64,000 nucleotides of DNA from Poseidonia sp. (GTDB taxonomy: Archaea; Thermoplasmatota; Poseidoniia; Poseidoniales; Poseidoniaceae). The position numbers and the translations under genes are program-made. Shown here one piece after another: positions 29,464 to 62,189 of this stretch. Location: the NCBI GenBank assembly GCA_038124565.1, contig JAYPCE010000001.1, positions 47,981 to 111,980 of the forward strand, given 5' to 3'. The notes beneath the pieces were generated by a model, which made no database searches, had not been told where the DNA came from, and worked only from the letters and a program-made list of their open reading frames with translations. Position 1 is the first letter of the stretch; each line of letters opens with the position of its first letter.

Positions 29464-31485
29464 TTAACCATGACGGCCAAAGTGATGGTCGAGACTGTCA
29501 ATTGGAATGCGCAGTGATGTTGGCCGTCCATGAACACACGCCCATGGGTTCGGTATTCGTCGCATATCGTCCAGCAGCCGCCTCATCTCGGGCAGCGTGA
29601 GCGATTCGTTGGCTTTCACGGCTCCTCGACAGGCGTTCATGAAGGCGATGTGGTCTTTTTTCGCCTCCATGGTTTCAAGCGGTCCCCCGTCAAGCGCCAA
29701 GTCCTGAAGCAAATCCAAGAAAAAAGGCCTCAATTCCTCGCCCGCTAACAGCCTTGGTGAAGCGGTCAGCACCCAATCGTCATTCTGAAGATGAATGTGA
29801 AAACCCAGTTCCTCCAACCGCTCTTGATGTGCTGCAACGACAGCGGACTGCCTTGCATCGAGTTCCAAGTCAAGCGGTGTGAGGCGCTGTTGGGGCTCCC
29901 AAGCCTGCCCGTGATAGCGCAACCGTTCGTAACGAACGCGCTCATGGAGTGCATGTTGGTCAATCAACAGTAACTCGTCTTCCGCCTGCACCAAGATGTA
30001 TGAGTTCGCAAATTGCGCCAACGGCTCCATGGCGGGCAACTCATTGAGTTCTCCCCCAAGCGGCTCCTCTTGACTCGGTAACGAGGTTGGCGCTGCCCCC
30101 GAATGTCGGTGCAGGGCGCGTTCTGCAGAAGACAGATGGGGTGCAAGGGGCTCATCCTGCATGTCCGGAAGAACAGTCTGGCCCAAGGGTGAGGAGGAAA
30201 CGGGACGGTTCGAAGGTATGGTTTCAGGTTCGTTGGCTTCCTCCCCGACCAAATTCAGTTGGCGACCTGCTGCGACGGCCCATGCCGGTGGTGCAGATGG
30301 GCTCACAACAGGTGCTGATTGTGAAGCAAGGCCGGCTGCAGAAACCAATGTGTTTGATGCATCGTTTTGATGTCCTTGGGCTGGGCCATCCACTAAGTAA
30401 GTTTCAACCGACTTTACGCGTTCAGCCGTCGAAAGTCCCTGCAAAGCGGGAATGCCGCCCGTCGCATCGGGTTCGGTGGGAATGCTTTCCAGCGTGTGGG
30501 CGATGGCACGTTCCAATCGTTCCAACACCCGCCAGGAATGCTTGAGGCGTACTTCACGCTTCGTTGGATGGACGTTGACGTCGACTTCCATGGGCGGACA
30601 TGTGAGGTTCAATACCGCCAGTGGATGGCGTCCGTGCATCAACCGCGTTTTGTATCCTCTGCGAATTGCTTGCAAAAAAGGACCAGGCGCCACAGGCCGG
30701 TGATTGATCAAGACATGGATATCATCGCCTTTACCGCGGGTGATGTCCGGTGTGCTGATCCATCCTTCCCAGCGCTCAATGCCTGGGGCGTCTTCATCAG
30801 CGGGAGGAAGTTGAAGAGGCACCAGTTCGGTGGCTTGTGCCCCCATGACGTCGTAGAGGCGGTCAAGCATGTCGTCCGTTGCTGGAACATTGAGTAAGGT
30901 TCTCGCTTCGTTTTTCAAGTGAAAGCCACACTCAGGGTGGGCCAAGGCATGGTCGACGACGACATCCACAATCCGAGCCGTTTCGGTTTCAGGTCGACGT
31001 TGGAAAGCGAGGCGAGCCGGGGTGTTCTGGAACAGATGTTCAACTGAAATCCGTGTGCCGTTCTGCATCCCTACAGGATGAACAGAGGATTTGACGCCGT
31101 CTTCCATGGTAATACTTGACCCAGCAGTTCCAGCAGGTTGACTCTCAATGGTTAGTTTTGAAACCATGCCGATACTCGCCAGTGCCTCACCTCGAAATCC
31201 AAGGGAAACGATGGCGCTCAAATCCTCTTTTGACGTCAGTTTGGAAGTAGCGTGACGGTCCAAAGCAAGGGGAAGGTCTTCTGCTGCGATTCCACCGCCA
31301 TTGTCTTCGACCACGAGTCGGTCAAATCCCCCGTTTTCAACCAGTACGGTGATGGATGTCGCCCCCGCGTCCAGACTGTTTTCTACCAGTTCCTTGACCA
31401 CTTGAGCGGGGCGCTCAACCACCTCGCCAGCGGCAATATGGCCAATGGTGGCGTCATCGAGTTGATGGATTCGCTGAGGCTTCAT
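29464..31485 (-). CDS. mutL: DNA mismatch repair protein MutL (endonuclease type)
   Basis: 673 aa with the GHKL ATPase N-terminus IAAGEVVERPAQVVKELVENSLDAGA and the C-terminal DQHALHERVRYE endonuclease motif. Its start overlaps the mutS stop by 4 nt. Confidence 0.95.
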   Translation of the reverse strand: MKPQRIHQLDDATIGHIAAGEVVERPAQVVKELVENSLDAGATSITVLVENGGFDRLVVEDNGGGIAAEDLPLALDRHATSKLTSKEDLSAIVSLGFRGEALASIGMVSKLTIESQPAGTAGSSITMEDGVKSSVHPVGMQNGTRISVEHLFQNTPARLAFQRRPETETARIVDVVVDHALAHPECGFHLKNEARTLLNVPATDDMLDRLYDVMGAQATELVPLQLPPADEDAPGIERWEGWISTPDITRGKGDDIHVLINHRPVAPGPFLQAIRRGYKTRLMHGRHPLAVLNLTCPPMEVDVNVHPTKREVRLKHSWRVLERLERAIAHTLESIPTEPDATGGIPALQGLSTAERVKSVETYLVDGPAQGHQNDASNTLVSAAGLASQSAPVVSPSAPPAWAVAAGRQLNLVGEEANEPETIPSNRPVSSSPLGQTVLPDMQDEPLAPHLSSAERALHRHSGAAPTSLPSQEEPLGGELNELPAMEPLAQFANSYILVQAEDELLLIDQHALHERVRYERLRYHGQAWEPQQRLTPLDLELDARQSAVVAAHQERLEELGFHIHLQNDDWVLTASPRLLAGEELRPFFLDLLQDLALDGGPLETMEAKKDHIAFMNACRGAVKANESLTLPEMRRLLDDMRRIPNPWACVHGRPTSLRIPIDSLDHHFGRHG

Positions 31486-34139
31486 CGTTCCTCCTCCGCC
31501 ATTGATTTCAGTTGATACAACACCTCAAGGGCTTGGCGTGGTGAAAGTTCGTCAACCTGCGTGTTTTGGAGATGGGTCAGCAACGCAGTAATGTGGCTTG
31601 GGATGGCGACCTGTTCTTGGGTTTGAACCGATGTCATGGCGGCGGCTGCGAAGTATCCCATCAAACTTGATTGACCAGCATCACGGGTTTGAGGGGCACC
31701 TTGCTCACCCGCTTTCGCACCACCTGCTTGTTGTTCCAAAAAGGCGAGCAAATCCGTTGCGCGTTCAACCACGCTGCGAGGCAGGCCAGCAAGGGCGGCT
31801 ACTTGGACACCGTATGAATCGTCACATGGGCCATCGGCCACTTTGTGCAGGAAGCGCAGTTGTCCGTCGACGTGGGCCACTTGGACGTGAACATTGCACA
31901 GGCCATTGACTTCTCCTTCAAGGCCAATTAACTGGTGGTAATGCGTTGCAAACAAGGTGCGGGCCCCAATTCGTGAACAGATGTCTTCGGTAACCGACCA
32001 GGCGATTGATAGGCCATCAAAAGTGGATGTTCCTCGTCCAATTTCATCAAGCAATACAAGAGATCGGGGCGTGGCACGCTTGAGGATATGGGCGACCTCA
32101 ATCATCTCCATCATGAATGTTGAACGTCCTCGCTTGAGGTCGTCGCTTGCGCCGACGCGTGTGAAAATGCGGTCGACAAGGCCAATCTTGGCGTTCTGTG
32201 CAGGGACAAAACAACCCGATTGAGCTAAGACGGTCGCCAACGCAACGGTGCGCAGATAGGTCGATTTTCCACCCATATTCGGTCCTGTGATCAGCAAAAA
32301 GGAACGCTTTTTGTCAATGCTTACATCGTTGGGGACAAACCCTTGTTGTGTTTCCAAAACGGGATGTCGGGCATCGTTCAGTTTGAGCACAGGGGTTGAG
32401 GATATCTCGGGTTTGGTCCATTGACGTTCCCTGCTGACAGAAGCAAAGCACTGCAGAACATCGATGGCGGATACGCGTCGTGCGATGTCGGCGAGGGTAG
32501 TGGAATGTTGGGTGCAATAGGTTCGTAATTCAAGGAACCGGCGGTATTCCAATTCCTTCAATTTGGAATCGGCGGTGAGCAAGAGGTCATCGCGTTCCAT
32601 CAATTCTGTGGTGACATACCTCGAACCGTTGGTCAGTTGCTGTTTTCGGCGCCAAGTTTCCGGCACTTTATCATCATGGGTTTGCGTAACCTCGATGAAC
32701 CACCCAACCTGGCGATTGTGCTTCACTTTTAGTGACGGAATCCCAAGGTCAGCACGGAGTTTCATTTCAAGGTTTGAGAACCATGCCTTTCCTTCGGACG
32801 TTACCTCTCTGAGTGCATCGACCTCCTCGTCAACACCGGCCTTGAGCAGGCCTCCATCTCGCAATCCCAGAGGAGGTGTTTCGTTGAGTGTGGCCTGAAT
32901 CATATCCGCCATCTCTTGCAAGCCATCCAAACCGTTGCTGAGATGCACCAGCAGTGGGTCTTGACTGTCGCTGCACCACCGAGCCACGGCGGGCATGCGT
33001 TCAAGGGCGTGGGCGGTGGCCACGAGGTCGCGAGCATTGCTTCGCTGGTAAGCCAATTGTGTGGCTAGGCGTTCCATGTCCCGAATGCCCTTAAGCGATT
33101 CACGAAGCCCATCTAAACGTCTTGCCGATTTGGTCAAGGTGCCGACGGCTTTGTGGCGCGTTTCAATCGCATCACGTTCTGCAAGTGGATGCAGCAACCA
33201 TGTTTTGAGCATACGCCGCCCCATGGCCGTTCGACAACGGTTCAAGGTTGAAAGCAGGCTTCCATCATGCTCTCCCGACAAGGTACTGGTCAGTTCGAGG
33301 TTGCGGAGGGTTGTTTGGTCAAGCAGCAGATGGCCCTGTTCCTCAACAACTTCAACATCTTGGAGCGGAACATCGGTTCGCATGTGGACCGTGGCCAGAT
33401 AATCTGCAGCAAGTCCTGTGGCTGAAAGAGCCAGTGGGGCATGGTCCAAGTCAAGATGGCCCAAATCTGCAACATCCAGCATGGCCCGGAGCCGCTGTTC
33501 ACGTTTGGCTTGGCTCAGTTGATGTTGGCTGATCATCGTTCCCTGCAATAACAGGAACAAACGCCCCATCTCTTCGTTTTCAGCATCCTTGGCGGAGAGC
33601 ACCAATTCATTCGGTTGCCAGCGTTGAAGGTCGTCTTGGAGTTTCACAAACCGTTCCGGGCCATCATGCGTGCTGGCCCATGCTTTTCCAGTTGAAACAT
33701 CGATGACGGCCAGCCCCAAACTCTCCGAGGACAAGGCCACAGCAGCGAGTAAAGATTGTTCGTCGCCCTCCAACAGGCCTTCTTCGTAAAGGCTGCCGGG
33801 TGTGTAGACTCGGGTCACGACCCGTTCGAGAAGTTTCGCGCCTTCCCGTAATTCCTCTTCTTGTTCAGCAACAGTGACTTTGTACCCTGCTCGAAGCATG
33901 GTCCTGAGGTGGTCCTCTAGACCGTGCCAAGGAAACCCCGCCATTGGAACCGGTTGTTCTGCATTCTTATCCCTCGAGGTGAGGGTAAGTCCAAGCACTT
34001 CTGCAGCCACCTCTGCATCTTCGTGGAAGAGTTCATAGAAATCGCCCATGCGGAAAAAAAGGATGGTGTCAGGATGTTGCTCCTTGATGTCAAAGAACTG
34101 GTCCATCATGCCGCGCTTTGACATCATCTTCACCTCCAT
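31482..34139 (-). CDS. mutS: DNA mismatch repair protein MutS
   Basis: 885 aa with the mismatch-binding FFRMGDFYELFHEDA, Walker A ITGPNMGGKSTYLR, and STFMMEM. The real start may be ATG at 34127, which follows GGAGGTG at 34137-34131 on the minus strand. Confidence 0.96.
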   Translation of the reverse strand: MEVKMMSKRGMMDQFFDIKEQHPDTILFFRMGDFYELFHEDAEVAAEVLGLTLTSRDKNAEQPVPMAGFPWHGLEDHLRTMLRAGYKVTVAEQEEELREGAKLLERVVTRVYTPGSLYEEGLLEGDEQSLLAAVALSSESLGLAVIDVSTGKAWASTHDGPERFVKLQDDLQRWQPNELVLSAKDAENEEMGRLFLLLQGTMISQHQLSQAKREQRLRAMLDVADLGHLDLDHAPLALSATGLAADYLATVHMRTDVPLQDVEVVEEQGHLLLDQTTLRNLELTSTLSGEHDGSLLSTLNRCRTAMGRRMLKTWLLHPLAERDAIETRHKAVGTLTKSARRLDGLRESLKGIRDMERLATQLAYQRSNARDLVATAHALERMPAVARWCSDSQDPLLVHLSNGLDGLQEMADMIQATLNETPPLGLRDGGLLKAGVDEEVDALREVTSEGKAWFSNLEMKLRADLGIPSLKVKHNRQVGWFIEVTQTHDDKVPETWRRKQQLTNGSRYVTTELMERDDLLLTADSKLKELEYRRFLELRTYCTQHSTTLADIARRVSAIDVLQCFASVSRERQWTKPEISSTPVLKLNDARHPVLETQQGFVPNDVSIDKKRSFLLITGPNMGGKSTYLRTVALATVLAQSGCFVPAQNAKIGLVDRIFTRVGASDDLKRGRSTFMMEMIEVAHILKRATPRSLVLLDEIGRGTSTFDGLSIAWSVTEDICSRIGARTLFATHYHQLIGLEGEVNGLCNVHVQVAHVDGQLRFLHKVADGPCDDSYGVQVAALAGLPRSVVERATDLLAFLEQQAGGAKAGEQGAPQTRDAGQSSLMGYFAAAAMTSVQTQEQVAIPSHITALLTHLQNTQVDELSPRQALEVLYQLKSMAEEER

Positions 34140-34233: not shown

Positions 34234-35442
34234 TTATCCTTGCAATCGGAATTCCATCACGGCATAACGCAACATCAAGGCGAGGACGACCGTGCCTGTG
34301 AGGAGATACAAGAGGTTCAGGAAACCTCGCCCACTCTCTATAGAACCGTTTGCAGAGATGTCAATTGACCATTGCACGGGGTGGCCGTTTTCGTCAACAC
34401 CGTGAACATGGACATAACTTCCGGAGGCGCCGGCAGCATGAGGCTCAACTGGCATTGGACGACCAAGCACATGCGTGTTAAGCACACCATGTTCGTAGGT
34501 ATTCAGGACGCTGGAACCCAATTGGCCAATGAACCAAACACGCCCGTTCTCGTCAGCCAAAGCGTGAACTGTTGGGACCTCCAGCACTTCTACGTCCTCT
34601 GGGTTGTGAATCAACAAACTCTCTGAGGTGCCACCAATCACCACAGCATCGCTGCTCTTGGCGATGCTGTGAAACACACCCTCGCCAAAGGTCTGGACTT
34701 TGTGAACGACTGGGGTGGCCTCCGTACCGTCCCATTGAATCCAGCCAAGTACCGGCCTTGATTGCGGCGTAGCAGGGCTTGAACCGTCTGCACCGGCCGT
34801 GGTGATGTGGGTGCCTAGTGCGACCCACAACGTATCGTCATAGGCTTCGATAGTATGCCATTGCACCCCTAGCGAAGTGGACATTGCGGGGGTCGGTGTC
34901 ATTCCCACAATACCTCGTACGGAGGTGTTGGCTCCTTCCTGCGTGAGCAGCATACGATGAACGAATTCACCCTGTTCCCGCTCCGCCACATCGAGCACAC
35001 CGAACACCCCTCTCGTGGTTGAGTAATCATACGACACGCTGATCGTACCCTCAAGACCAATCACCTGGTTGTTGGCTACGGAGAAGAGGATTTCGCCGTC
35101 GGGCATCGCTTTGAGAAACTTGACATCCGCGGCTTTGTCAACGGTGTCTGGACTGTAGACCACGCGAATCTCGCCACTGCGTGTATCTTCTGTGAACAGC
35201 GAGTAGCCCGCTTGGGGTGAATAGACCACCGCCGTGTAGGCTCCGACTTCTGGGCCGTAGGCAATATCCGTGACCAAACCGCCTTCATGAGCCGCATCGA
35301 CATCAACCAGTGAGGCCCCAACAAAGTGCTCCGTGGCACCAATGGCGAAGGCTCCAATGAACACGAAGAGGAAAAAAGCGGTAATGGAGAGCCATTGATA
35401 CTCAGATTCCTCTTCAAGGAGCCTGCGCCACTTCCCAGCCAT
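34234..35442 (-). CDS. membrane-anchored protein with beta-rich (propeller-like) ectodomain, unknown function
   Basis: The start is set at ATG 35442 (MAGKWRRLLEEESEYQWLSITAFFLFVFIGAFAIG, an N-terminal TM). The track N-terminus (to 35682) overlaps rpl10e on the other strand. There is a C-terminal TM, LLYLLTGTVVLALML. Confidence 0.55.
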   Translation of the reverse strand: MAGKWRRLLEEESEYQWLSITAFFLFVFIGAFAIGATEHFVGASLVDVDAAHEGGLVTDIAYGPEVGAYTAVVYSPQAGYSLFTEDTRSGEIRVVYSPDTVDKAADVKFLKAMPDGEILFSVANNQVIGLEGTISVSYDYSTTRGVFGVLDVAEREQGEFVHRMLLTQEGANTSVRGIVGMTPTPAMSTSLGVQWHTIEAYDDTLWVALGTHITTAGADGSSPATPQSRPVLGWIQWDGTEATPVVHKVQTFGEGVFHSIAKSSDAVVIGGTSESLLIHNPEDVEVLEVPTVHALADENGRVWFIGQLGSSVLNTYEHGVLNTHVLGRPMPVEPHAAGASGSYVHVHGVDENGHPVQWSIDISANGSIESGRGFLNLLYLLTGTVVLALMLRYAVMEFRLQG

Positions 35443-35530
35443 GTGGGTCGCTGTCGCCCACGCAACATGAAGACTTTGCTGGCCGTTGGCTTGATTTGGC
35501 GATGACCGATGGTGAACGGTTGATGCGGAG

Positions 35531-35540
35531 ATATCATAAA
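35531..35540 (+). promoter_or_regulatory. candidate TATA-like element upstream of rpl10e
   Basis: ATATCATAAA lies about 40 nt upstream of the rpl10e ATG (35578), and GGAGG at 35566-35570 provides an RBS. Sequence-only inference. Confidence 0.3.
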
Positions 35541-35577
35541 GGGAGCATCGGTCGCAGGACTGCTTGGAGGCAGACCA

Positions 35578-36117
35578 ATGGCACGAAAGCCCGCAGTGAT
35601 GTATCGCCGTTTGAAAGGCCCAGCCTACACCCGCCGCAAGTACATCGGCGGTGTCCCGAACAACCGAATTCATCAGTTCCACGTGGGCAACCGCAGGGCT
35701 GCTGAAACAGGTAAGTTCCCCGTTGTCATCGAACTACGTGCCGACAACGATGTCCAAATCCGACACACCGCTTTGGAAGCAGCTCGTGTGGTCTCCAACT
35801 CTACCATCCGTAAGCAAGCAGGGCCTCAAGGGTATGCTCTGCGTGTCCACACTTTCCCACATCACGTCCTGCGTGAAAACAAGCAAGCGACCGGTGCTGG
35901 TGCTGACCGTGTTTCCCAAGGCATGCGATGTGCTTTCGGAAAGAACGTTGGAACGGCCGCCCGTGTACGCCGAGGCCAGCGCATTCTCTCCATTCAGGTC
36001 AATCCACAACACTACCTCACCGCTCGTGATGCGCTTCGCAAGGCGAGTATGAAATTCCCTACACCGTGCACCATCCGCCTCATCAGCGGCCACGAGCACC
36101 TCAAGGGACTCATTTGA
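35578..36117 (+). CDS. rpl10e: 50S ribosomal protein L10e (uL16)
   Basis: 179 aa starting MARKPAVMYRRLKGPAYTRRKYIGGVPNNRI, with the characteristic L10e N-terminus and FPHHVLRENK block. Confidence 0.95.
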   Translation: MARKPAVMYRRLKGPAYTRRKYIGGVPNNRIHQFHVGNRRAAETGKFPVVIELRADNDVQIRHTALEAARVVSNSTIRKQAGPQGYALRVHTFPHHVLRENKQATGAGADRVSQGMRCAFGKNVGTAARVRRGQRILSIQVNPQHYLTARDALRKASMKFPTPCTIRLISGHEHLKGLI

Positions 36118-36210
36118 GACCTGGAACGACCTCCTCAACCGACGGGTTTTGCCTGCCGGTTGGTAGGTGAAACAAAATAGAACAGACGAAAGGCTTGGTT
36201 GGGTGATGGA

Positions 36211-37989
36211 ATGCGTGTTGCCGTTCTGAAGGAAGACAATTGTCAACCGAAGAAATGCAACGACGAGTGTCACGATTATTGTCCACCTGTACGGAACGGC
36301 CAAGAATGCATCATCATGGATGACCACACTGGAAAGCCACATATCTCAGAGAGTTTGTGTATAGGTTGCGGTATATGCATTAACAAATGCCCCCATGATG
36401 CGCTGATCATTGAGAACCTTCCAAGTGAACTCGAGACGGACATGATTCACCGGTATTCGATGAACGGTTTCCGTTTGTTCCGCTTGCCCACGCCGTCCAA
36501 GGAAAGCGTCGTCGGTATCCTTGGCCCCAATGGAATGGGAAAATCTACCGCCATCAGTGCGTTGTCTGGGCGCATGATTCCCAATCTTGGCGATTGGTTG
36601 AATCTGGAGCCGGATTGGGACGACGTCATCGACTCGCTGCCAAAAGGTGAACTGCGGGACTTCTTTATCGCCGTCCAGAAGGGCGAGGTCAAGGTGGCGG
36701 TCAAGCCGCAAAATGTTGACCGCTTGCCCAAACGTGTGCAAGGAACCGTACATGACTTGCTGAGTAAGGTTGACGAGCGCAAGATCATGGGCGAAATGAC
36801 GGTCTCTCTCGGCATTGACCATCTGCTTGACCGCAAGATTCAGCAACTGTCCGGCGGAGAATTGCAGCGAATGGCCATATGCGCCACCATCCTTCGTGAT
36901 GTGGATGTGTACTTCTTCGACGAACCGTCTTCCTATCTGGATATTCACGAACGCTTGCGCATTGTTCGCATCATTCAGGAACTCGCCGAGACAAAGCGGG
37001 TCATTGTCATTGAGCACGATCTTGCCGTTCTTGATGTGCTTGCAGACCTCGTCCACATCGTGTACGGAAAGAAGGGTGCGTTTGGCATTTTCACCCCCGC
37101 ACGGTCAACTAGGCAGGCCATCAATTCGTATCTTGATGGCTTTTTGCCGGAAGAGAACGTCCGTATTCGGGACAAACCCATCAAATTCCTCCGCCACCAA
37201 GACAGGTCCTCCGAAATTGGGACGCCAGTGGTCAGTTGGGGTGAATTGAGCAAGCAATTGGGGAGTTTCCAACTGAGAGCCGGAGAAGGCGCTGTTCACC
37301 GTTCCGAGGTGGTTGGCGTTGTGGGTGCAAACGGGACTGGAAAATCGACGATGATCAAAATTCTCGCTGGTGAGCACGACTACGATGAGGGTTGGGTAAC
37401 AGCGGATGCCACCATCTCTTACAAACCACAGCACATTGATGTGGATATGGATGGCTCTGTTCAGCTTTGGCTCGATAGCGAGTTGGGCCCGCGTTGGCGA
37501 AGTGGTGAGTTTAACGTCAACGTGATTCGTGCGTTGGGGATTGACCAATTGTTACCCAAACGCGTGAAAAAACTCTCCGGAGGGGAACGACAGGCGGTCT
37601 CCATCGCCTTGTGCTTGGGACGAGAGGCAGATTTGTATCTGCTCGATGAGCCTTCGGCACACTTGGACGCCAGTGCGAGAATGGAAGCGGCGAAGGCGAT
37701 TCGTCGAACCATGGAAGCCAATGAAAAATCGGCGTTTGTCATTGACCATGATGTCTATTTCATTGACATTGTTTCCGATTCACTGCTTGTGTTTGAGGGC
37801 GAAGGTGGTGTACAAGGTAACGCCACCGGCCCGTTCAATTTGCGAACGGGCATGAACCAATTTTTGGCCGGTGTTGATGTGACGTTCCGACGAGACCACG
37901 ATTCACGCCGACCCCGGATCAATAAGAGCGAGAGCAGAAAAGACCGAGAACAACGTAGTAGTGGTGACTATTATTCCTATGATGCTTGA
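36211..37989 (+). CDS. abce1: ABCE1 / RNase L inhibitor homolog (ribosome recycling ATPase)
   Basis: N-terminal 4Fe-4S region (CQPKKCNDECHDYCPPV, CIGCGICINKCP), two ABC cassettes (GILGPNGMGKST, GVVGANGTGKST) and signatures LSGGELQR / LSGGERQ. ATG at 36211 (MRVAVLKED) is preferred to the track TTG at 36199. Confidence 0.95.
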   Translation: MRVAVLKEDNCQPKKCNDECHDYCPPVRNGQECIIMDDHTGKPHISESLCIGCGICINKCPHDALIIENLPSELETDMIHRYSMNGFRLFRLPTPSKESVVGILGPNGMGKSTAISALSGRMIPNLGDWLNLEPDWDDVIDSLPKGELRDFFIAVQKGEVKVAVKPQNVDRLPKRVQGTVHDLLSKVDERKIMGEMTVSLGIDHLLDRKIQQLSGGELQRMAICATILRDVDVYFFDEPSSYLDIHERLRIVRIIQELAETKRVIVIEHDLAVLDVLADLVHIVYGKKGAFGIFTPARSTRQAINSYLDGFLPEENVRIRDKPIKFLRHQDRSSEIGTPVVSWGELSKQLGSFQLRAGEGAVHRSEVVGVVGANGTGKSTMIKILAGEHDYDEGWVTADATISYKPQHIDVDMDGSVQLWLDSELGPRWRSGEFNVNVIRALGIDQLLPKRVKKLSGGERQAVSIALCLGREADLYLLDEPSAHLDASARMEAAKAIRRTMEANEKSAFVIDHDVYFIDIVSDSLLVFEGEGGVQGNATGPFNLRTGMNQFLAGVDVTFRRDHDSRRPRINKSESRKDREQRSSGDYYSYDA

Positions 37990-38004: not shown

Positions 38005-39777
38005 TTGGCGGATGGAGGTGACGATGTGCCTGTAGGCTTACCTCCCCGAGGTGGCCCTCTTGGACGCTCAAGAGGTCGTCTTTCCGCCAGCGCTTTGACG
38101 ACCTATCTTCGTTGTCCACGTCAGTGGTTGCTTCTCTACCAAGCCGGCCTGCAAGCACCCACGCGTCCATCACAAATCCTCGGAGTGGTTTTGGAAGAGG
38201 CCTTGTGCGAATTGTTGATGATGCACCCTCCGGAAGAGGTGGAGGGAACGGATGAACTGCGGCAATGGGCAAAAACAGGGATTGAATCCTTGGCGATAAA
38301 GGCTCAACAGGAAGGCGAGCGAGCATGGCAGGAAAGCCTGTGGACCGTTGATGACGAGTCTTGGTCAGACATCCCACTGGAGGTCTTTGTTAACCGTCTT
38401 CAGGGCGGCCTTGACCTGTTCCTAAGCGAGGTTCAAGCGTGTTTTGAAGCCGGTGGTGGACCGTATCTCGCAGCCATGCGCCAAGGTACACAGCCGTTCA
38501 ACGTACCAGCGCCATGCAACTCCGCACCACCTGTGTTTCCCCTGCCAGAGAAAGTCCCAGATGTCGACTTGCGACGATGGCCGTTGGATGATTTACCGAT
38601 TTGGCAGCCACTGGACGCAGCGGTGAAGTGGAACGAAGCGTGGGAGTGCGCTCGACCGTGGTTCAAAGACCCCCGAGTCCATCAACCACAACGACTCTAT
38701 CACCCAGAGGGTTGGGCCTCCGGAGAATTGGACCTGGTTCTTCGATGGGATGGAACCGTTCGCTTGGTTGATATCAAATCCGGCCGTCCTGGCTCTGCGT
38801 TTTCACCTTCGCTTGAACACCAATTGAGGTTCTATGCATGGCTCTGGCATGAAACGCACGGAGGGGACCTCGTTTCTGCAATGGAAGGATGGTACCTTGA
38901 CGGTGGAGAACGCGTGGCCTTTGATGTACCTCTGAGCGCTGAAATCGAGCAACTGCACACCCATTACGCCACCCTCCACCAAGCGATGCAATCAATGGCT
39001 GAAGGCGTGTTGGCGTTTCCTGCCTCTCCCGATTTAGCCTGTGATGGGGCAGCGGCTGGTTGCAGTTGGTGTTCCCTTTCTCGGGATGAACAGGGGGTTT
39101 GGAAGGGTGCACCTTCTCTGTCGTGGGTTGGCGATATCTCGAATGTAAGTATGCGCTCACCATATCAGCCTTTGGCTATGATTCAAGGGAGAGTGGCGGT
39201 CAGAGGACGCCTCACAGGTGTTTGGGGTCCACTGCCAAATCACTTTGGCGAACCCGTATTGGGTGCCGTTTTGGTTGTTGGAGATCAACACATTACCGTA
39301 GAAGAAAGCGAACCTGGGGCATTTTCAACCTTGCATGAAGCGAACGAGCAGGATGTGGTCATACTGGACGCGCTTCCTGGAGTGTGGCGTGACCAACCTC
39401 GCTTGTACATGGACGGTTCGTCCTCTATGTTGCTTGAAGAAGGGCCGGACGTGACGCACGCCAACACCACCTTCACGCGATTGGGCTTACTGCGTACGAG
39501 GGCGAATGTTTCAGGTCATGTGCTCTCTCTTGGTAGGCGTTCGGGAGTTCGCATCGATGGCAAACCATGGACCATGGTTTCCTTCATGCTGTGGGACGGG
39601 TCCTCCATTGCCGAAGTCGTCGCCTTCGGTTCAAGCATTAACCAACGTTTGTTGGAATTGCGTCCCGGTGATGAGATTGGTATGACTGGTGTTGAAATCG
39701 GTTGGCGTTCGGGCGTCCTTCAACTTCGCATAGACAACCGGAAAACAAGGTTGGATCTGCAGGCAATCCGTGAATAA
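38005..39777 (+). CDS. Cas4/RecB-like PD-(D/E)XK nuclease (4-Cys) fused to C-terminal OB-fold-like domains, paralog 1
   Basis: 590 aa. N-terminal LSASALTTYLRCPRQW. Nuclease core GELDLVLRWDGTVRLVDIKSG (D...D-x-K) and QLRFYAWLWH. Cys cluster CDGAAAGCSWC. The beta-rich C-terminal 220 aa (RVAVRGRLTGVWG..., VSGHVLSLGRRSGVRIDGKPWTMVSFMLWDG) is OB-like. An alternative start is GTG at 38026, 4 nt after GGAGGTGA (38014-38021). Confidence 0.6.
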   Translation: MADGGDDVPVGLPPRGGPLGRSRGRLSASALTTYLRCPRQWLLLYQAGLQAPTRPSQILGVVLEEALCELLMMHPPEEVEGTDELRQWAKTGIESLAIKAQQEGERAWQESLWTVDDESWSDIPLEVFVNRLQGGLDLFLSEVQACFEAGGGPYLAAMRQGTQPFNVPAPCNSAPPVFPLPEKVPDVDLRRWPLDDLPIWQPLDAAVKWNEAWECARPWFKDPRVHQPQRLYHPEGWASGELDLVLRWDGTVRLVDIKSGRPGSAFSPSLEHQLRFYAWLWHETHGGDLVSAMEGWYLDGGERVAFDVPLSAEIEQLHTHYATLHQAMQSMAEGVLAFPASPDLACDGAAAGCSWCSLSRDEQGVWKGAPSLSWVGDISNVSMRSPYQPLAMIQGRVAVRGRLTGVWGPLPNHFGEPVLGAVLVVGDQHITVEESEPGAFSTLHEANEQDVVILDALPGVWRDQPRLYMDGSSSMLLEEGPDVTHANTTFTRLGLLRTRANVSGHVLSLGRRSGVRIDGKPWTMVSFMLWDGSSIAEVVAFGSSINQRLLELRPGDEIGMTGVEIGWRSGVLQLRIDNRKTRLDLQAIRE

Positions 39778-39792
39778 CCTTCCTTGTGAGGC

Positions 39793-41676
39793 TTGAAAAG
39801 GGGTGAACTTTGTCGCCTTTCTATGCCCGTTCACGCAGCAGACCCAGCACGTGATAATGTGGGCCCGTACAACCGTCTTTCTGCAAGCCAAGCCAACCTG
39901 TACAAGGCTTGCCCGCGGTTGTGGTTCTATGAGAAAATCTACCGGTTCAAGATGCATCAAATCCCCGTACTCTATGTTGGAAAGGCGGTTGAGGAAGCGA
40001 TTTGCAGGGTGCTCAAAGATTCACCGTGTTTGGTGATGGCGAACGCACCTGCCGATGTTCTCGGCACGAGCCCATACACGGAAGATGGTGTACCGTACGG
40101 GCGGGATGAACAACCATGGCCAGCAGAGCGCTTGCTCCCTCTTCTTCCTGAGGAACGCCCCCAGACCATCGAAGACCTCGAACAGTGGGTTGTCGGACGC
40201 TGTCGGGCGCATGTTCCTCCAGCGCTCGCAAAGGCACGTACCCAATGGGAGAAAGACGAACGACGAAGTGGGGATTGGAATGAGGTCGATGTTGACGCTT
40301 GTTATGAGATGGTAGTCAATGGTCTGATGTTCCACATCAACGAGGTTGAGCGCTGTCTCGACGAAGGTGGGGGGCCATCGTTTGAAACTTGGAGAAGCGG
40401 GCAACGTCTCCATTGGCCAGCACCGGATGGATTCCCCCATGAACCGTTTGAAGGCAACCACCCCTTGGCTGAAGAAGGGCCAATTTCAGTTGCAGAAGCC
40501 TGGGAGGTTGCCCGTCCTTGGTTTGTAGACCCCGATTCACCTCCCTTCAAGATGAACGCCGTCCACCCGGATCATTGGTTTCAAGGCGAATACGACTTGG
40601 TGTATCGTTGGAGTGGGCGCGTAGCCATCGTCGACATCAAAGCCAGCATCGGAGCAGGTGACCGTTCGGGTGATTATGTTGAGCAGATGAAGGCATACGC
40701 CCTGCTGTGGCATGTAACACACGGACGAAAGGAACACGTTAGCGAATTGGAAATTTGGTACCTTGGGCACCCCAGCATCAAATACATTCCCGTACCTGGT
40801 CCTGAGGAACTTGTTGAACTTGAAACAGACTTGGAAGCGATGTGGCAGCAATTACGGGCGACGGTTCCGACCATTGAGCAATGTCCTCCTACTCCAAGGC
40901 CGATGCGAGGGTTCACGCCCGGAGGGACACCGACGTCCCCTCCCGATGTCAAGCGTTGTGACTCCTGTGACTGGCGAGCGGTCTGCCCGGGCGGAGAAGG
41001 CGCGGCGCAGCCAGTTGTGCCGTCATCCTATCAATTGCCGGGGGCGAGCGAACGCACGCCATTGCAAGACATTGGTACGCTGAATCCGAGGATTTCAGTC
41101 CGTGGTGTCTTGTTTTCGGTCGGTATCAGCTCGCCAAGCAAACCGCTGATGCTCACGCTCAAACAGGGCACAAATACGGCGCATGTGCACGTGGTAGCGA
41201 GTGAGCATGCCGACGGCGGGCCAATTGTCACTATGCAACCCGCTCGAGGTATGCCTGTCCTTGTTCAGGACGCCGTTTTTACTGTGAATTGGAAAGGGGA
41301 AATCGTTCTCAAACTTGACCCGTATGCCCGATTGATGGAAGACAACGACCCGTCAGTGCCTTCCAGTGACCTGTTTGACATTCAAGCCAAGCACAACATC
41401 GGGGGCGTCGTGGTCTACACCTACGAAAAGAGCGGCGTCGGCAAGGGTGGGAAACGCTGGTCCAGACGAGGCATGATGGTCATGGATAGCACGGGGGCTA
41501 CCAAGGTCGAAGGGTGGGCGGATGATTGGAACGCTCAATATGAATTGGTCCAAGAAGGCGACACGGTTGTGTTGGCCAACCTTGGTCTTGATGCTTGGGC
41601 CAGCGATGTTCGTGGCGAATATACGAGAAATTCTCGATTACAAATCATTGAACGTGTTGAACGCTCAACCCCCTGA
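39793..41676 (+). CDS. Cas4/RecB-like PD-(D/E)XK nuclease (4-Cys) fused to C-terminal OB-fold-like domains, paralog 2
   Basis: 627 aa and colinear with paralog 1. Motifs: LSASQANLYKACPRLW, AWEVARPWFVDP, GEYDLVYRWSGRVAIVDIKAS, QMKAYALLWH, and the Cas4-type CDSCDWRAVC (C-x2-C-x5-C). C-terminal OB-like segments are ISVRGVLFSVG... and GGVVVYTYEKSGVGKGGKRWSRRGMMVMDSTG. An alternative start is ATG at 39823. Confidence 0.6.
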   Translation: MKRGELCRLSMPVHAADPARDNVGPYNRLSASQANLYKACPRLWFYEKIYRFKMHQIPVLYVGKAVEEAICRVLKDSPCLVMANAPADVLGTSPYTEDGVPYGRDEQPWPAERLLPLLPEERPQTIEDLEQWVVGRCRAHVPPALAKARTQWEKDERRSGDWNEVDVDACYEMVVNGLMFHINEVERCLDEGGGPSFETWRSGQRLHWPAPDGFPHEPFEGNHPLAEEGPISVAEAWEVARPWFVDPDSPPFKMNAVHPDHWFQGEYDLVYRWSGRVAIVDIKASIGAGDRSGDYVEQMKAYALLWHVTHGRKEHVSELEIWYLGHPSIKYIPVPGPEELVELETDLEAMWQQLRATVPTIEQCPPTPRPMRGFTPGGTPTSPPDVKRCDSCDWRAVCPGGEGAAQPVVPSSYQLPGASERTPLQDIGTLNPRISVRGVLFSVGISSPSKPLMLTLKQGTNTAHVHVVASEHADGGPIVTMQPARGMPVLVQDAVFTVNWKGEIVLKLDPYARLMEDNDPSVPSSDLFDIQAKHNIGGVVVYTYEKSGVGKGGKRWSRRGMMVMDSTGATKVEGWADDWNAQYELVQEGDTVVLANLGLDAWASDVRGEYTRNSRLQIIERVERSTP

Positions 41677-41865
41677 TGAAATGGTCGTCACTCGCAACTC
41701 AACGCTCTCGTTCAAGGGTGTGGAATGAGGTAAGATCGTTCCTTCGTAACTTACAATCACCATGGACGGTAACAAGCCGGCGGCTACTAGGGCTTCACGA
41801 ACAGTCGTTCCTGCTTCCACTTCCGCAAGATGTTCACCCTCGCCATCGTTGAACCTCACTTCCAT
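41665..41865 (-). CDS. ThiS/MoaD-family ubiquitin-like beta-grasp protein with C-terminal Gly-Gly (SAMP-like)
   Basis: 66 aa from ATG 41865: MEVRFNDGEGEHLAEVEAGTTVREALVAAGLLPSMVIVSYEGTILPHSTPLNESVELRVTTISSGG, then stop. Size, pattern and terminal GG fit ThiS/MoaD/SAMP. The track ORF (to 41964) would run into the tRNA. Confidence 0.7.
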   Translation of the reverse strand: MEVRFNDGEGEHLAEVEAGTTVREALVAAGLLPSMVIVSYEGTILPHSTPLNESVELRVTTISSGG

Positions 41866-41920
41866 GGCACATCCATGAAACATCATGCTTATGACCGTCG
41901 CGCAAAAGCGGCATGACAGA

Positions 41921-42003
41921 GCCGAGGTCGCATAGCCCGGTATTGCGGTGGATTCGAAATCCACTGTCCCTTGGACGCGGGGGTTCGAATCCCTCTCTCG
42001 GCG
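41921..42003 (+). tRNA. tRNA-Ser (anticodon CGA)
   Basis: 83 nt. Acceptor stem GCCGAGG/TCTCGGC. D arm GCAT-AGCCCGGTA-TTGC. Anticodon stem GTGGA/TCCAC with loop TTCGAAA (CGA at 41955-41957). Long class II variable arm TGTCCCTTGGACGC (GTCC/GGAC stem). T arm GGGGG-TTCGAAT-CCCTC. Discriminator G. No encoded CCA. Confidence 0.92.
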
Positions 42004-42006
42004 CTC

Positions 42007-60620: not shown

Positions 60621-62189
60621 ATGAACTGTGGCGCTTGTGGTGAAGCGATTCCAGCCGACAGTATGTTCTGTCCGGAATGCGGTTCCCGCCAAGACATGTC
60701 GGTTGCTGGTGGTTTCGCCCCTCCACCCGCTCAAAACATACCTCCGTTCCCACAGCAGCCGCGCTCGTTTGACCCCGTTTCTGGAGAGCAGCAACGTATG
60801 CAGCAAGAAGCCAACATGAACCAAATGGGCCAAGTCTCACAGGACATGCTCCAAGGCATGGCTCAAGGTTTGAATCAGCACCAAAACCTTCCTCCAGGTA
60901 CCTATCCCCAACAACCAATTCATGGTGGATTCCCTCCCCAGCAGGGCTTCATGCCTCAAGGCAATGTGATGCCGAACAACAATGTCGCTCCACTGAATGA
61001 TATGCCCAACGTGCACCGTGGGCCCTCAATTGCAAGCGGGGTGTTGCCCAACACGAGCAATGTTTCTCCGCTTGCAGCGGGAGGGACAAAAATTGCCCAC
61101 AATCCTGCCAACTCCCCCACCGATGCCATGGTGAACCGACTGGCTGAGGCTGAACGTGCGGTAAAAGAAGATCGCCGAAGTCAATGGCTTTCCATGAACC
61201 AAAGCCCTGCTTCGTCGGTCCTCGCCAACCTCGGTGGCGGCGAGTTGCCTGCTCACCTGCGAGGTGCAGCGGAGAGTGGTAGTGCCGCTGCTGACATCAT
61301 GGCCGGCGCCATGGGGGGACAAGGCAACGATGCACCAAACGATGCATTGTTGCGTCGCATTTCGGAAGTAGCCATTCGCCGTGTGGCTCGAAAGCGCGGC
61401 GTGGCGGTAGAAGCGCCTCAGACCAAACTTGCTGGAGACACGTTTGAAGTCAATGTCACTTATGTTGACGATGGTCGCGTGTTGGATTCTGCTGAAGACC
61501 TCATGCAGGCCTTTGAGCAAGCGATTCAAACCGAGCTTGCGTTGAAGGGGTACGATTTGACATGCACCATCACCATGTTCCGGTCAAAAGATGGAAAAAC
61601 CGAGAAAATCGGTGCAGAAGAAACCGATGAAGACATGTTTGCTTGCGAGATTTGCGACGGTTTGGTCAAGGAAAGCGACCCAACCTGCCCCCATTGTGGA
61701 GCAATGTTTGAGGATGACGGTGATGAAGAGCCTGCTTCCATGCCGCCCAAGCGAGGCGGCCCCCCTGGTCCAAGTAAGTCCGGAGGTCCACCAGGTCCAA
61801 GCAAGAGTGGAGGCCCCCCCGGACCGAAGAAAGGTGGTCCACCAGGACCAAGCAAGAGTGGAGGTCCTCCCGGTCCAAAGAAAGGCGGCCCCCCTGGTCC
61901 AAGCAAGTCCGGGGGTCCACCCGGTCCGAGCAAGAGTGGAGGCCCTCCCGGTCCAAAGAAAGGCGGCCCCCCTGGTCCAAGCAAGAGTGGCGGTCCACCC
62001 GGTCCAAGCAAGAGCGGTGGCCCTCCCAAAGGCGGTCCAGGCGGCGGCCCCCCCGGTCCAAGCAAGAGTGGCGGCCCTCCCGGCCCCAGCAAGAGCGGTG
62101 GCCCTCCAAAAGGTGGTCCTGGTGGCGGCCCCCCAGGCCCCAAGAAGAGCGGTCCTCCCGGTGGTCCAAAACGGGGCCCACCTCGATGA
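60621..62189 (+). CDS. double zinc-ribbon protein with Q/N/P/M-rich region and C-terminal (GGPPGPSKS)n repeat tail; unknown function
   Basis: 522 aa. N-terminal CGACGEAIPADSMFCPECG. A low-complexity Q/N/P/M-rich stretch. A central folded-looking region. A second ribbon, CEICDGLVKESDPTCPHCG. Then about 16 tandem 8-9 aa Gly/Pro/Lys/Ser units running to the stop. Confidence 0.7.
   Translation: MNCGACGEAIPADSMFCPECGSRQDMSVAGGFAPPPAQNIPPFPQQPRSFDPVSGEQQRMQQEANMNQMGQVSQDMLQGMAQGLNQHQNLPPGTYPQQPIHGGFPPQQGFMPQGNVMPNNNVAPLNDMPNVHRGPSIASGVLPNTSNVSPLAAGGTKIAHNPANSPTDAMVNRLAEAERAVKEDRRSQWLSMNQSPASSVLANLGGGELPAHLRGAAESGSAAADIMAGAMGGQGNDAPNDALLRRISEVAIRRVARKRGVAVEAPQTKLAGDTFEVNVTYVDDGRVLDSAEDLMQAFEQAIQTELALKGYDLTCTITMFRSKDGKTEKIGAEETDEDMFACEICDGLVKESDPTCPHCGAMFEDDGDEEPASMPPKRGGPPGPSKSGGPPGPSKSGGPPGPKKGGPPGPSKSGGPPGPKKGGPPGPSKSGGPPGPSKSGGPPGPKKGGPPGPSKSGGPPGPSKSGGPPKGGPGGGPPGPSKSGGPPGPSKSGGPPKGGPGGGPPGPKKSGPPGGPKRGPPR
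61755..62186 (+). repeat. in-frame tandem repeat array (24/27-nt units encoding GGPPGPSKS / GGPPGPKK / GGPPKGGPG)
   Basis: About 16 consecutive units read directly from the sequence. Units differ mostly at third codon positions and by AGY/TCC serine codon switches. The array generates long spurious ORFs in the other five frames. Confidence 0.9.

Follow-up and report, generated by a model that had tools for sequence, protein, structure and literature searches.

AdnAB contains two RecB-family nuclease modules on two paralogous subunits that are encoded side by side, and AddB carries four cysteines in the 1+3 arrangement known as the 'iron staple'. Dna2 and EXO5 are eukaryotic Fe-S PD-(D/E)XK nucleases acting on single-stranded DNA (ssDNA), and Dna2 has an OB fold besides its nuclease and acts together with RPA. 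SfsA, too, joins an OB fold to a PD-(D/E)XK domain (PMC1189080). For the pfam12705 nucleases, the fusion catalogue of a Cas4 phylogenomics paper lists UvrD-like and YprA-like helicases as the only partners, and a role of solo-Cas4 in defence or repair has been published there as speculation (PMC5704561).

Two adjacent genes, here called A and B, are located in the window, i.e. the whole 64-kb stretch of DNA that was analysed. Their main features are:

38005 to 39777, + strand: gene A, longest ORF 590 aa; putative Fe-S PD-(D/E)XK nuclease with predicted tandem OB folds
38074 to 39120, + strand: nuclease domain of A, residues 24-372 (PF12705, E 1.8e-20; Foldseek)
39172 to 39762, + strand: predicted tandem OB folds of A, residues ~390-478 and 499-586 (AlphaFold2 strands 397-477 and 499-585; Foldseek)
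39793 to 41676, + strand: gene B, longest ORF 627 aa from TTG 39793; paralog of A with the same architecture
39874 to 41022, + strand: nuclease domain of B, residues 18-400 counted from 39823 (PF12705, E 9e-15)
41080 to 41658, + strand: predicted tandem OB folds of B, residues ~420-506 and 524-610 (AlphaFold2 strands; Foldseek)

A and B share the D, D/E-x-K, Q-x3-Y core with Cas4, solo-Cas4 and other pfam12705 nucleases (SSO0001; Pcal_0546, PDB 4r5q), as well as the 1+3 cysteines of Cas4, with the spacing C-x2-C-x5-C in B and in divergent A-type proteins; a weak profile match to 4r5q was also obtained. However, they are about three times larger than Cas4; their nuclease domain contains an extra stretch of about 90-130 aa, and two OB folds follow at the C-terminus. 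Assignment to Cas4 proper was rejected, as the scores with the TIGR00372 equivalog model (20.0 and 19.8 bits) lie far below its cut-off of 65 and the genes have no cas or CRISPR linkage. Two RecB-family nuclease modules are likewise present in AddAB and AdnAB, but A and B have OB folds instead of motors and no helicase or helicase-like domain, they are archaeal rather than bacterial, and B is dispensable in some genomes; the AddA and AddB models of NCBIfam gave no sequence match to A or B. Dna2 differs in its single, N-terminal OB fold and its additional SF1B helicase, and EXO5 in having no OB fold; both were absent from the results of all sequence searches with A and B. Structurally, the nuclease domain comes closest to phage RecB-family exonucleases (COG2887; Thermus phage P23-45 A7XX28 and HCTV-1 R4TI04; TMt up to 0.58), and PHROG 'exonuclease' families matched A and B weakly, whereas the phage proteins are single-domain proteins of 250-340 aa without OB folds. 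The tandem OB arrangement resembles that of RPA (RPA70 DBD-A/B; P. abyssi RPA, 8aaj/8aas) and crenarchaeal SSB, with structural E values of 2e-9 to 1e-6. Unlike RPA, A and B have two OB folds only, no zinc-ribbon-containing OB fold and no RPA32/14 partners, and their OB folds are fused to a nuclease. The OB fold of SfsA is single and N-terminal, its nuclease is YraN/Hjc-like without an Fe-S cluster, and the protein, of about 230 aa, is unrelated in sequence. The component parts of A and B are already known; undescribed is their combination, a putative Fe-S PD-(D/E)XK nuclease with predicted tandem RPA-like OB folds, as a paralog pair.

Architecture and paralogy

The two same-strand ORFs of 590 and 627 aa are as given in the preliminary description, and all motifs quoted there were found: LSAS..Y..CPR.W, (A/E)GGGP, AWE.ARPWF.DP, GE(L/Y)DLV.RW.G.V..VDIK(S/A) and Q(L/M)..YA.LWH. 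Its 15-nt spacer, taken from the longest ORFs, has to be revised. In A, GGAGGTGA at 38014-38021 is followed by GTG 38026, and most A and B homologues have the N-terminus MPV... (MPVGLPP in most A homologues). Because the homologues mostly begin in this way, A probably starts at GTG 38026, which gives a protein of 583 aa, and B probably at ATG 39823, which gives 617 aa; the spacer is then probably 45 nt.

The paralogy proposed earlier was confirmed by BLASTP (E 2e-42), which aligned nearly the entire proteins at 25% identity. Identity between A and B is 36% in the nuclease core and falls to 17-23% in the OB folds; inside its own family, each OB fold is 42-66% conserved. In one midpoint-rooted NJ tree, calculated without bootstrap, the A clade and the B clade are separate and bacterial single-OB proteins fall outside both, a topology that points to an old duplication as the origin of the pair. 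The AlphaFold2 models of both proteins, of about 600 aa each, are confident (pLDDT 85-86, pTM 0.81-0.83), and from the pTM values the nuclease and the OB pair are predicted to form one compact unit in each protein. Apart from the nuclease, the helical insert and two beta-barrels, the models contain no further domain. A helicase family domain was found in neither protein by Pfam and NCBIfam profile searches, in agreement with the preliminary description.

PF12705 (PDDEXK_1; RecB/AddB/Cas4-like) was matched by A with 74.4 bits and by B with 55.7 bits, and the gathering threshold of 22 was also passed by divergent and bacterial relatives. The catalytic residues are E241-x-D243, D256-x-K258 (D256-I-K258) and Q273..Y277 in A, and E256-x-D258, D271-x-K273 (D271-I-K273) and Q288..Y292 in B. 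An N-terminal cysteine (Cys37 in A, Cys30 in B) is followed by three more, Cys346/353/356 in A (C-x6-C-x2-C) and Cys379/382/388 in B (C-x2-C-x5-C), just as first described; the latter spacing is shared by divergent A-type proteins and bacterial relatives. The D, D-x-K and Q-x3-Y residues and the 1+3 cysteine set do not vary among 33 orthologues of A and 34 of B, with identities as low as 45-50%, the catalytic set is also invariant in A and B combined, and divergent and bacterial relatives keep both the catalytic and the cysteine residues. A and B are predicted from these residues to be catalytically intact PD-(D/E)XK nucleases, and the four-cysteine layout is of the 'iron staple' type of Cas4, AddB, Dna2 and EXO5, with putative cluster binding. 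The insert of A (residues ~76-205) is helical and Pro-rich. Foldseek matched the A model to RecB-family/PD-(D/E)XK exonucleases of phages with probability 1.00 over ~320-340 alignment columns (R4TI04 to the nuclease domain: TMt 0.58, rmsd 5.1), so that the modelled nuclease domain of A has the alpha/beta restriction-endonuclease-like fold.

Foldseek on the AlphaFold models, the check suggested in the preliminary description, recovered the PD-(D/E)XK fold in A and OB folds in both proteins, and the two C-terminal OB segments proposed there are borne out by the AlphaFold2 secondary structure. With probability 1.00, both models matched RPA70 DBD-A/B, P. abyssi RPA, POT1, Teb1 and HIN-200. The best E values were 2e-9 for A with RPA70 (4gop_C; also HIN-200, POT1 and Teb1) and 6e-9 for B with RPA70, followed by 8e-8 with P. 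abyssi RPA (8oej; also HIN-200). A profile of the C-terminal halves (A6) matched Pyrococcus abyssi RPA in OB2 (E 2e-5) and SSB in OB1 (E 0.02). PF01336 was matched by 7/13 C-terminal halves, the best relative reaching 25.1 bits and A 15-17 bits; the window proteins are below the cut-off of 27. The two OB folds of A are joined by the invariant, basic linker TRLGLLRTRAN. According to the models, the C-terminal halves of A and B are RPA-like OB beta-barrels in tandem, which suggests that they bind ssDNA; the HIN-200 matches may also be compatible with binding of double-stranded DNA.

Conservation and inheritance

The gene directly upstream of A, named correctly in the preliminary description, is recognized by its Pfam domains:

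36199 to 37989, + strand: ABCE1/RLI (Fer4_RLI, Fer4, two ABC_tran stretches)

ABCE1, a translation factor, is the tightest conserved neighbour of A-B. It precedes A directly on the same strand, with gaps of 8-36 nt, in 80/80 GTDB loci and in L086, a locus on a divergent 3.0-Mb archaeal contig where ABCE1-A-B are in the same order and the genes upstream of ABCE1 differ. In the phyletic profile and gene-neighbourhood check proposed earlier, the order uL16-ABCE1-A-B-ThiS-like-PAC2-aIF2alpha is present in 78 of the 80 loci of GTDB species-representative Poseidoniales. B has been cleanly deleted and A kept in two genomes, L059 and L051, probably in independent events. In the archaeal class Poseidoniia (Marine Group II and relatives), both genes belong to the core chromosome, and the tree is consistent with vertical inheritance along the lineage. 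A rare, single-copy relative with a single OB fold occurs in Planctomycetes-like bacteria, where it is not adjacent to translation genes; relatives were found in none of 2.9 million viral contigs. The A and B distance matrices are correlated with r 0.96 and partial r 0.80, the top of all pairs tested, a mirror-tree signal that is non-specific, as PAC2-aIF2alpha gives partial r 0.76.

No repair gene specifically linked to A-B was found. CRISPR-like repeats are absent from the whole window, as had been reported for the vicinity of the pair, as are cas, restriction-modification and other defence genes from its annotated ORFs, and cas genes from the called genes of related loci. Homologues are named in the databases only 'PD-(D/E)XK nuclease family protein' or 'hypothetical', and no published description of the family was found; with only helicase fusions in the published catalogue (PMC5704561), the earlier statement that the family could not be named still holds, and it is uncharacterised.

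Proposed function and alternatives

A and B are best read as ssDNA-directed nucleases of genome maintenance, of Fe-S type and equipped with OB folds, that possibly cooperate with a separate helicase; this reading is given a probability of about 0.55. Their role would be DNA-end resection, flap or gap trimming, or excision. The OB pair would take hold of a single-stranded tail, or of a junction between single and double strand, and hand the substrate to the nuclease site, the four-cysteine cluster would hold the nuclease together like the staple of AddB, Cas4 and Dna2, and unwinding would come from the separate helicase. Because the paralogs diverged most in their OB folds, A and B probably differ in the strand, polarity or substrate that they act on. 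By analogy with AddAB/AdnAB and their two nuclease domains, A and B may cooperate, one nuclease per strand. An obligate A-B complex is unlikely because B is cleanly deleted in two genomes, which also weakens the possible heterodimer of the preliminary description. We infer DNA rather than RNA as the substrate, and likewise the pathway and any A-B complex.

The deletions of B would also fit two independent enzymes, i.e. ssDNA nucleases that serve different substrates or pathways (e.g. processing of replication intermediates versus repair), never form a complex and owe their adjacency to duplication history and low rearrangement. The single-copy bacterial relatives, the strong divergence of the OB folds between the paralogs and a region that is syntenic anyway are in line with such independence. 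It is nevertheless doubtful, given that the genes have stayed adjacent in 78/80 species and in L086 despite the old duplication and show the highest distance correlation among the genes tested. OB folds and PD-(D/E)XK domains in general can also act on RNA, and the pair might act on RNA in connection with translation: it would be transcribed together with uL16 and ABCE1 and degrade mRNA or rRNA fragments when ribosomes are rescued or recycled, its OB folds holding single-stranded RNA. The ABCE1 linkage, which survives in L086 with its different upstream genes, and the translation or proteasome-assembly genes downstream (PAC2, Nop10, aIF2alpha, L44e) speak for a link to translation. However, the synteny covers the whole block and is not ABCE1-specific, the bacterial relatives do not lie beside translation genes, and all named homologues and structural neighbours are DNA enzymes or binders (RecB-family exonucleases, Cas4, RPA, SSB, POT1, LEF-3, HIN-200). 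To our knowledge, Fe-S PD-(D/E)XK nucleases of the A/B type are known only as DNases. The reading as an RNA nuclease tied to translation is considered decidedly improbable.

Defence, an alternative proposed in the preliminary description, would be directed against viruses or plasmids and make A and B a solo-Cas4-like nuclease pair degrading invading DNA. Weak PADLOC matches to Cas4 and DruK models (E 4e-9 to 1e-4) and the speculation on solo-Cas4 (PMC5704561) point in this direction, but the matches span the generic nuclease core only, and TIGR00372 stays at 20 bits against 65. Defence is not supported because the pair is fixed in a housekeeping block in 78/80 species, was passed on with the lineage as two distinct clades, and lacks relatives in viruses or mobile elements; nor does the window hold CRISPR, cas, restriction-modification or other defence genes. 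It is regarded as very improbable; the pair is most likely a DNA-repair or end-processing nuclease instead. Within genome maintenance, a more specific proposal is that A-B is a motor-less two-nuclease DNA-end-resection/excision machine peculiar to Poseidoniia, with one built-in RPA-like ssDNA clamp per Fe-S RecB-type nuclease, each acting on a different strand or polarity, together with a separate helicase. It might functionally take over from HerA-NurA or act alongside it, or provide the missing exonuclease step of the bacterial-type MutS-MutL system encoded 4 kb from the pair, on the opposite strand (and absent from L086). This proposal is tentative and unlikely to hold as a whole.

Downstream flank and remaining window

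Two small features follow B:

41665 to 41865, - strand: ThiS/ubiquitin-like small ORF, convergent, ~66 aa from an internal Met (Pfam ThiS, E 0.0017)
41921 to 42004, + strand: tRNA-Ser(CGA) (Rfam RF00005, 50.9 bits; ARAGORN)

The ThiS-like call of the preliminary description is a weak one, with 19.3 bits under the Pfam cut-off of 22.5. Elsewhere, the window consists of ordinary chromosomal DNA that encodes GyrA, MutL-MutS and, 26 kb from the pair, a Hel308-type helicase. The ThiS-like ORF shares 12 nt with the 3' end of B, and its longest version runs to 41964, with a 5' part that overlaps tRNA-Ser. Its position downstream of the pair is kept in nearly all loci, and homologues of 66 aa are present in L004 and L086.

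The A and B genes in their chromosomal setting

The window is ordinary chromosome, with GyrA, a Hel308-type helicase, TldD/PmbA, isoprenoid-lipid genes, MutL-MutS, uL16, ABCE1, PAC2 and aIF2alpha. The features under discussion are as follows, in window coordinates.

9344-11965, + strand: Hel308/Hjm-type helicase (DEAD, Helicase_C and archaeal helicase domain 4; Pfam)
29464-34139, - strand: MutL and MutS, bacterial-type, 4-8 kb upstream of A and B on the opposite strand
34234-35682, - strand: 482-aa ORF between MutS and uL16, no Pfam match
38005-39777, + strand: gene A, 590 aa as ORF
39793-41676, + strand: gene B, 627 aa as ORF
41665-41964, - strand: longest 'ThiS-like' ORF, convergent with B
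41921-42004, + strand: tRNA-Ser(CGA), overlapping the longest 'ThiS-like' ORF in its 5' third
61755-62123, + strand: coding tandem repeat of GGPPGPSK-like units in the ORF at 60621-62189

Both genes lie where the preliminary description had placed them, and all the motifs that it listed were found in their products. A and B were aligned by BLASTP at E = 2e-42, with 25% identity over essentially their full length; the paralogy proposed there is therefore real. Most homologues of both families have MPV as N-terminus. In the window, GGAGGTGA precedes a GTG at 38026, from which A reads MPVGLPP..., and an ATG at 39823 gives a B product beginning MPVHAAD.... With these starts the spacer between A and B is more likely 45 nt than the 15 nt reported originally. 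A sigma-70 promoter and terminator scan of the archaeal sequence gave counts equal to the shuffled expectation, sigma-70 models being uninformative for an archaeon.

No CRISPR-like repeats were found in the 64-kb window and no defence genes among its annotated ORFs, in agreement with the absence of nearby cas genes and CRISPR arrays noted previously. A Pfam scan of 31 window ORFs found no helicase other than the Hel308/Hjm-type gene, which lies 26 kb upstream and is unlinked to A and B. MutL-MutS is syntenic with the A/B block throughout the Poseidoniales and is not found in L086, a divergent 3-Mb archaeal contig. The 482-aa ORF keeps its position in all loci, is fast-evolving (28-69% identity) and overlaps the uL16 start in its longest form. 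The real start of the 'ThiS-like' gene is probably the internal Met at 41865, and the product would then have 66 aa, like its relatives; this gene has a 12-nt convergent overlap with the 3' end of B and keeps its position in nearly all loci. The tandem repeat has a 27/51-nt start-to-start spacing and contains 8 overlapping copies of an 81-nt reference.

Nuclease domain, cysteines and OB folds

The products of A and B match PF12705 (PDDEXK_1, RecB/AddB/Cas4-like) with 74.4 and 55.7 bits, respectively, against a cut-off of 22 (Pfam). For the Cas4 equivalog TIGR00372 the score is just 20 bits, its cut-off being 65, and no family of NCBIfam was matched above its own cut-off. By these profile scores the two proteins are Cas4-like in a wide sense, and are not Cas4. 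A helicase domain was found in neither by Pfam or NCBIfam, and searches with PADLOC and PHROGs returned generic nuclease matches only. When the nuclease halves were searched against PDB sequences, as single sequences and as profiles, the matches were insignificant (Cas4 4r5q, E 0.05); the IF3 matches among them were spurious.

Conservation was determined in alignments of 33 A-type and 34 B-type orthologues with identities down to 45-50%. Invariant in the A family are C37, E241-x-D243, D256-x-K258, Q273..Y277 and C346/C353/C356, and in the B family, numbered from ATG 39823, C30, E256-x-D258, D271-x-K273, Q288..Y292 and C379/C382/C388; the same catalytic and Cys columns are invariant in the joint alignment. 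Both paralogs thus keep the complete catalytic set and the complete 1+3 cysteine set (one Cys before and three after the nuclease core, the layout of Cas4/AddB-type Fe-S nucleases). Together with the PF12705 scores, this upholds the PD-(D/E)XK core and cysteine layout recognized in the preliminary description. Neither protein looks like a degenerate subunit by its conserved residues, and a nuclease-dead DNA-binding role is rejected, as all catalytic residues are invariant in both paralogs.

Two extra cysteines outside the 1+3 set, C68 (38206-38208) and C146 (38440-38442) in A and C61 and C160 in B, are invariant across both archaeal families. Each of the three bacterial short relatives in the alignment lacks at least one of them, and the relatives P0338 and P0364 lack both. 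A second metal site or a structural function is conceivable for the two residues.

AlphaFold2 models were built from the family alignments and reached pLDDT 84.9 and pTM 0.83 for A, and pLDDT 85.9 and pTM 0.81 for B. In both models the parts are ordered as N-terminal helices with the first Cys, a long helical, proline-rich insert of low confidence in places, an alpha/beta core and two beta-barrels. For chains of about 600 residues these pTM values are high and suggest packing of the barrels against the nuclease domain, not a flexible tether. In Foldseek searches of the PDB with both models, the 50 best matches were all OB-fold nucleic-acid binders (probability 1.00) and nearly all of these were tandem-OB DNA binders, including RPA70 DBD-A/B (4gop_C, 2e-9 and 6e-9; 1jmc), Pyrococcus abyssi RPA, POT1, Teb1 and HIN-200. 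The two C-terminal OB folds that had been suspected are therefore also predicted from structure. With a profile of the C-terminal half, OB2 matched P. abyssi RPA (E = 2e-5 to 6e-5) and OB1 matched crenarchaeal SSB (E ~0.02); PF01336 matched 7 of 13 C-terminal halves, all below its cut-off. In a viral structure library (Foldseek), the nuclease domain matched RecB-family/PD-(D/E)XK phage exonucleases over ~320-340 alignment columns, including that of HCTV-1 (TMt 0.58, rmsd 5.1 Å), the RecB-family exonuclease of Thermus phage P23-45 and COG2887 proteins, and the OB part matched baculovirus LEF-3 ssDNA-binding proteins.

Distribution and inheritance

Full-length relatives number hundreds each for A and B. 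Their source labels are Poseidonia, Poseidoniaceae, Poseidoniales, Poseidoniia, Thermoplasmatota and 'Euryarchaeota archaeon', and their product names 'PD-(D/E)XK nuclease family protein' or 'hypothetical'. When 1.84 billion cluster representatives were searched exhaustively by HMM, full-length matches numbered only some 35, besides fragments, and no relatives were found in 2.9 million viral contigs.

A GTDB scan with one genome per species gave 458 matching stretches, the best 80 of which were used for locus counts. All 80 are from Poseidoniales except two bins with bacterial labels. ABCE1 is directly upstream of A in 80/80 and B follows A in 78/80 of these best loci, so that the neighbourhood conservation proposed as a check in the preliminary description is found across the Poseidoniales. 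The order MutS, hypothetical, uL16-ABCE1-A-B, ThiS-like, PAC2, aIF2alpha persists at protein identities as low as 45-50%. Among full-length pairs, the most divergent is on the high-GC, 3.0-Mb contig L086, which has ABCE1-A-B-small ORF-PAC2-aIF2alpha-S27e-L44e and different genes upstream of ABCE1. The two exceptional GTDB representative bins are labelled Salipiger bermudensis (L075, CAXQWT010000056.1) and Rhodobiaceae bacterium (L082, CALDQY010000232.1); their contigs have the typical Poseidoniales order uL16-ABCE1-A-B-PAC2-aIF2alpha, and judged from this order the labels are probably due to mis-binning or contamination.

ABCE1 identity to the window is bimodal in otherwise similar genomes (~67-78% vs 84-94%; loci L006-L085), and ABCE1 distances show poor correlation (r 0.28-0.39) with the distances of every other gene, which may point to two forms of ABCE1 or to an insertion in part of the genomes.

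Shorter relatives of 429-477 aa consist of the nuclease and a C-terminal region only long enough for one OB fold. They are rare (nine clusters only among 5.8 billion proteins, one labelled Planctomycetes bacterium), single-copy and located in bacterial chromosomal contexts. In a single neighbour-joining tree, midpoint-rooted, without bootstrap and hence indicative only in topology, the bacterial short proteins fall outside, and A and B form separate clades, with the divergent pairs contributing one member to each. This placement suggests a duplication older than the split of these archaeal lineages.

The single-cell genome AG-333-I22 (L059:4314-6392) has lost B by a precise deletion of 1.87 kb; it is 92% identical in nucleotides on both sides of the deletion to the B-containing locus of UBA91 (L069:5220-9173). 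B is also missing in a Tara MAG (ERR599165_bin.117, L051:6001-8039) that is only ~80% identical to either, which implies at least two independent losses; B is thus dispensable in nature. A and B may form a complex, as the suggestion of a possible heterodimer had it. The genes are adjacent almost everywhere and have the highest distance-matrix correlation of the pairs tested (r 0.96, partial 0.80), although the control pair PAC2-aIF2alpha is nearly equal (partial 0.76) and such mirror-tree results are weak evidence. The losses of B speak against an obligate complex.

Proposed function and novelty

AddB, Cas4, Dna2 and EXO5, all Fe-S 'staple' nucleases, have ssDNA or DNA ends as substrates, and tandem OB folds of the RPA/POT1 type bind ssDNA along a groove spanning two barrels. 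By analogy with both, we infer that A and B are ssDNA-directed nucleases. A tail, flap or junction would be bound by the OB pair and guided to the nuclease active site, and A and B may be specialised for different strands, polarities or substrates. Such specialisation would fit the identity between A and B of 36% in the nuclease core and 17-23% in the OB folds, each OB fold being conserved at 42-66% inside its own family. AddAB and AdnAB, with their two nuclease domains, are the obvious analogy.

A defence module, the alternative offered in the preliminary description, is poorly supported and is rejected: the genes are fixed in a housekeeping position, the tree fits vertical inheritance, no defence neighbours were found among the annotated window ORFs and no copies in 2.9 million viral contigs, and PADLOC matches were generic. 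A translation-linked RNA nuclease deserves mention, as ABCE1 is the one invariant same-strand neighbour (gaps of 8-36 nt), but all homologues and structural neighbours are DNA enzymes or DNA binders, and the bacterial relatives have no linkage to ABCE1 or translation. Among DNA-directed roles, that of an excision nuclease for the bacterial-type MutS-MutL encoded 4 kb upstream is possible and speculative, but both genes are absent from the divergent locus L086.

In a phylogenomic survey of Cas4/pfam12705 proteins, fusions or operons were reported with UvrD-like and YprA-like helicases only (PMC5704561). A PD-(D/E)XK census described one OB fusion, SfsA, which differs from A and B in domain order and nuclease subtype and has no Fe-S cluster (PMC1189080). 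No description of the A/B family was found in the searchable literature (Cas4-like or RecB-like with OB, Poseidoniales nuclease or repair), and no statement of the resection genes carried by Poseidoniales in that on Poseidoniales repair, Rad50 and HerA/NurA distribution. With source annotation generic or hypothetical, the earlier remark that the family could not be named holds. In each of the two diverged paralogs a Cas4/AddB-type nuclease with the Fe-S cysteine signature is fused to an RPA-like tandem OB module. Going by sequence, we class A and B among the PF12705 nucleases of predicted Fe-S type; both their architecture and their arrangement as a pair are new. The parts are familiar and the combination is new; it is neither Cas4 nor AddAB/AdnAB, and is unlikely to be a defence system.

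Poseidoniales (Marine Group II) rank with the most abundant archaea of the surface ocean. To our knowledge they have no cultured member, and their DNA-maintenance machinery is therefore known from annotation alone; here a near-universal, strongly conserved gene pair has so far been annotated generically or as hypothetical. The pair is lineage-restricted and its function argued by analogy, yet it is near-universal in an abundant ocean group and directly testable in vitro. Known couplings of ssDNA handling to a nuclease are the helicase fusions AddAB, AdnAB and Dna2 and the NurA-HerA system. If A and B are end-resection or excision nucleases, they would represent a third solution coupling ssDNA handling to an Fe-S nuclease, and would offer studies of genome maintenance in an uncultured lineage a concrete target that can be expressed.

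A simpler version of this architecture is found in the rare bacterial relatives with a single OB fold. Three of their loci are:

L087:6632-9392, bacterial single-OB relative
L088:6224-9290, bacterial single-OB relative
L089:6583-9317, bacterial single-OB relative

These relatives are flanked by a conserved, divergently oriented hypothetical protein of ~335 aa with no Pfam match and also adjoin a 4Fe-4S ferredoxin of ~105 aa; the three genes may constitute a small conserved module.
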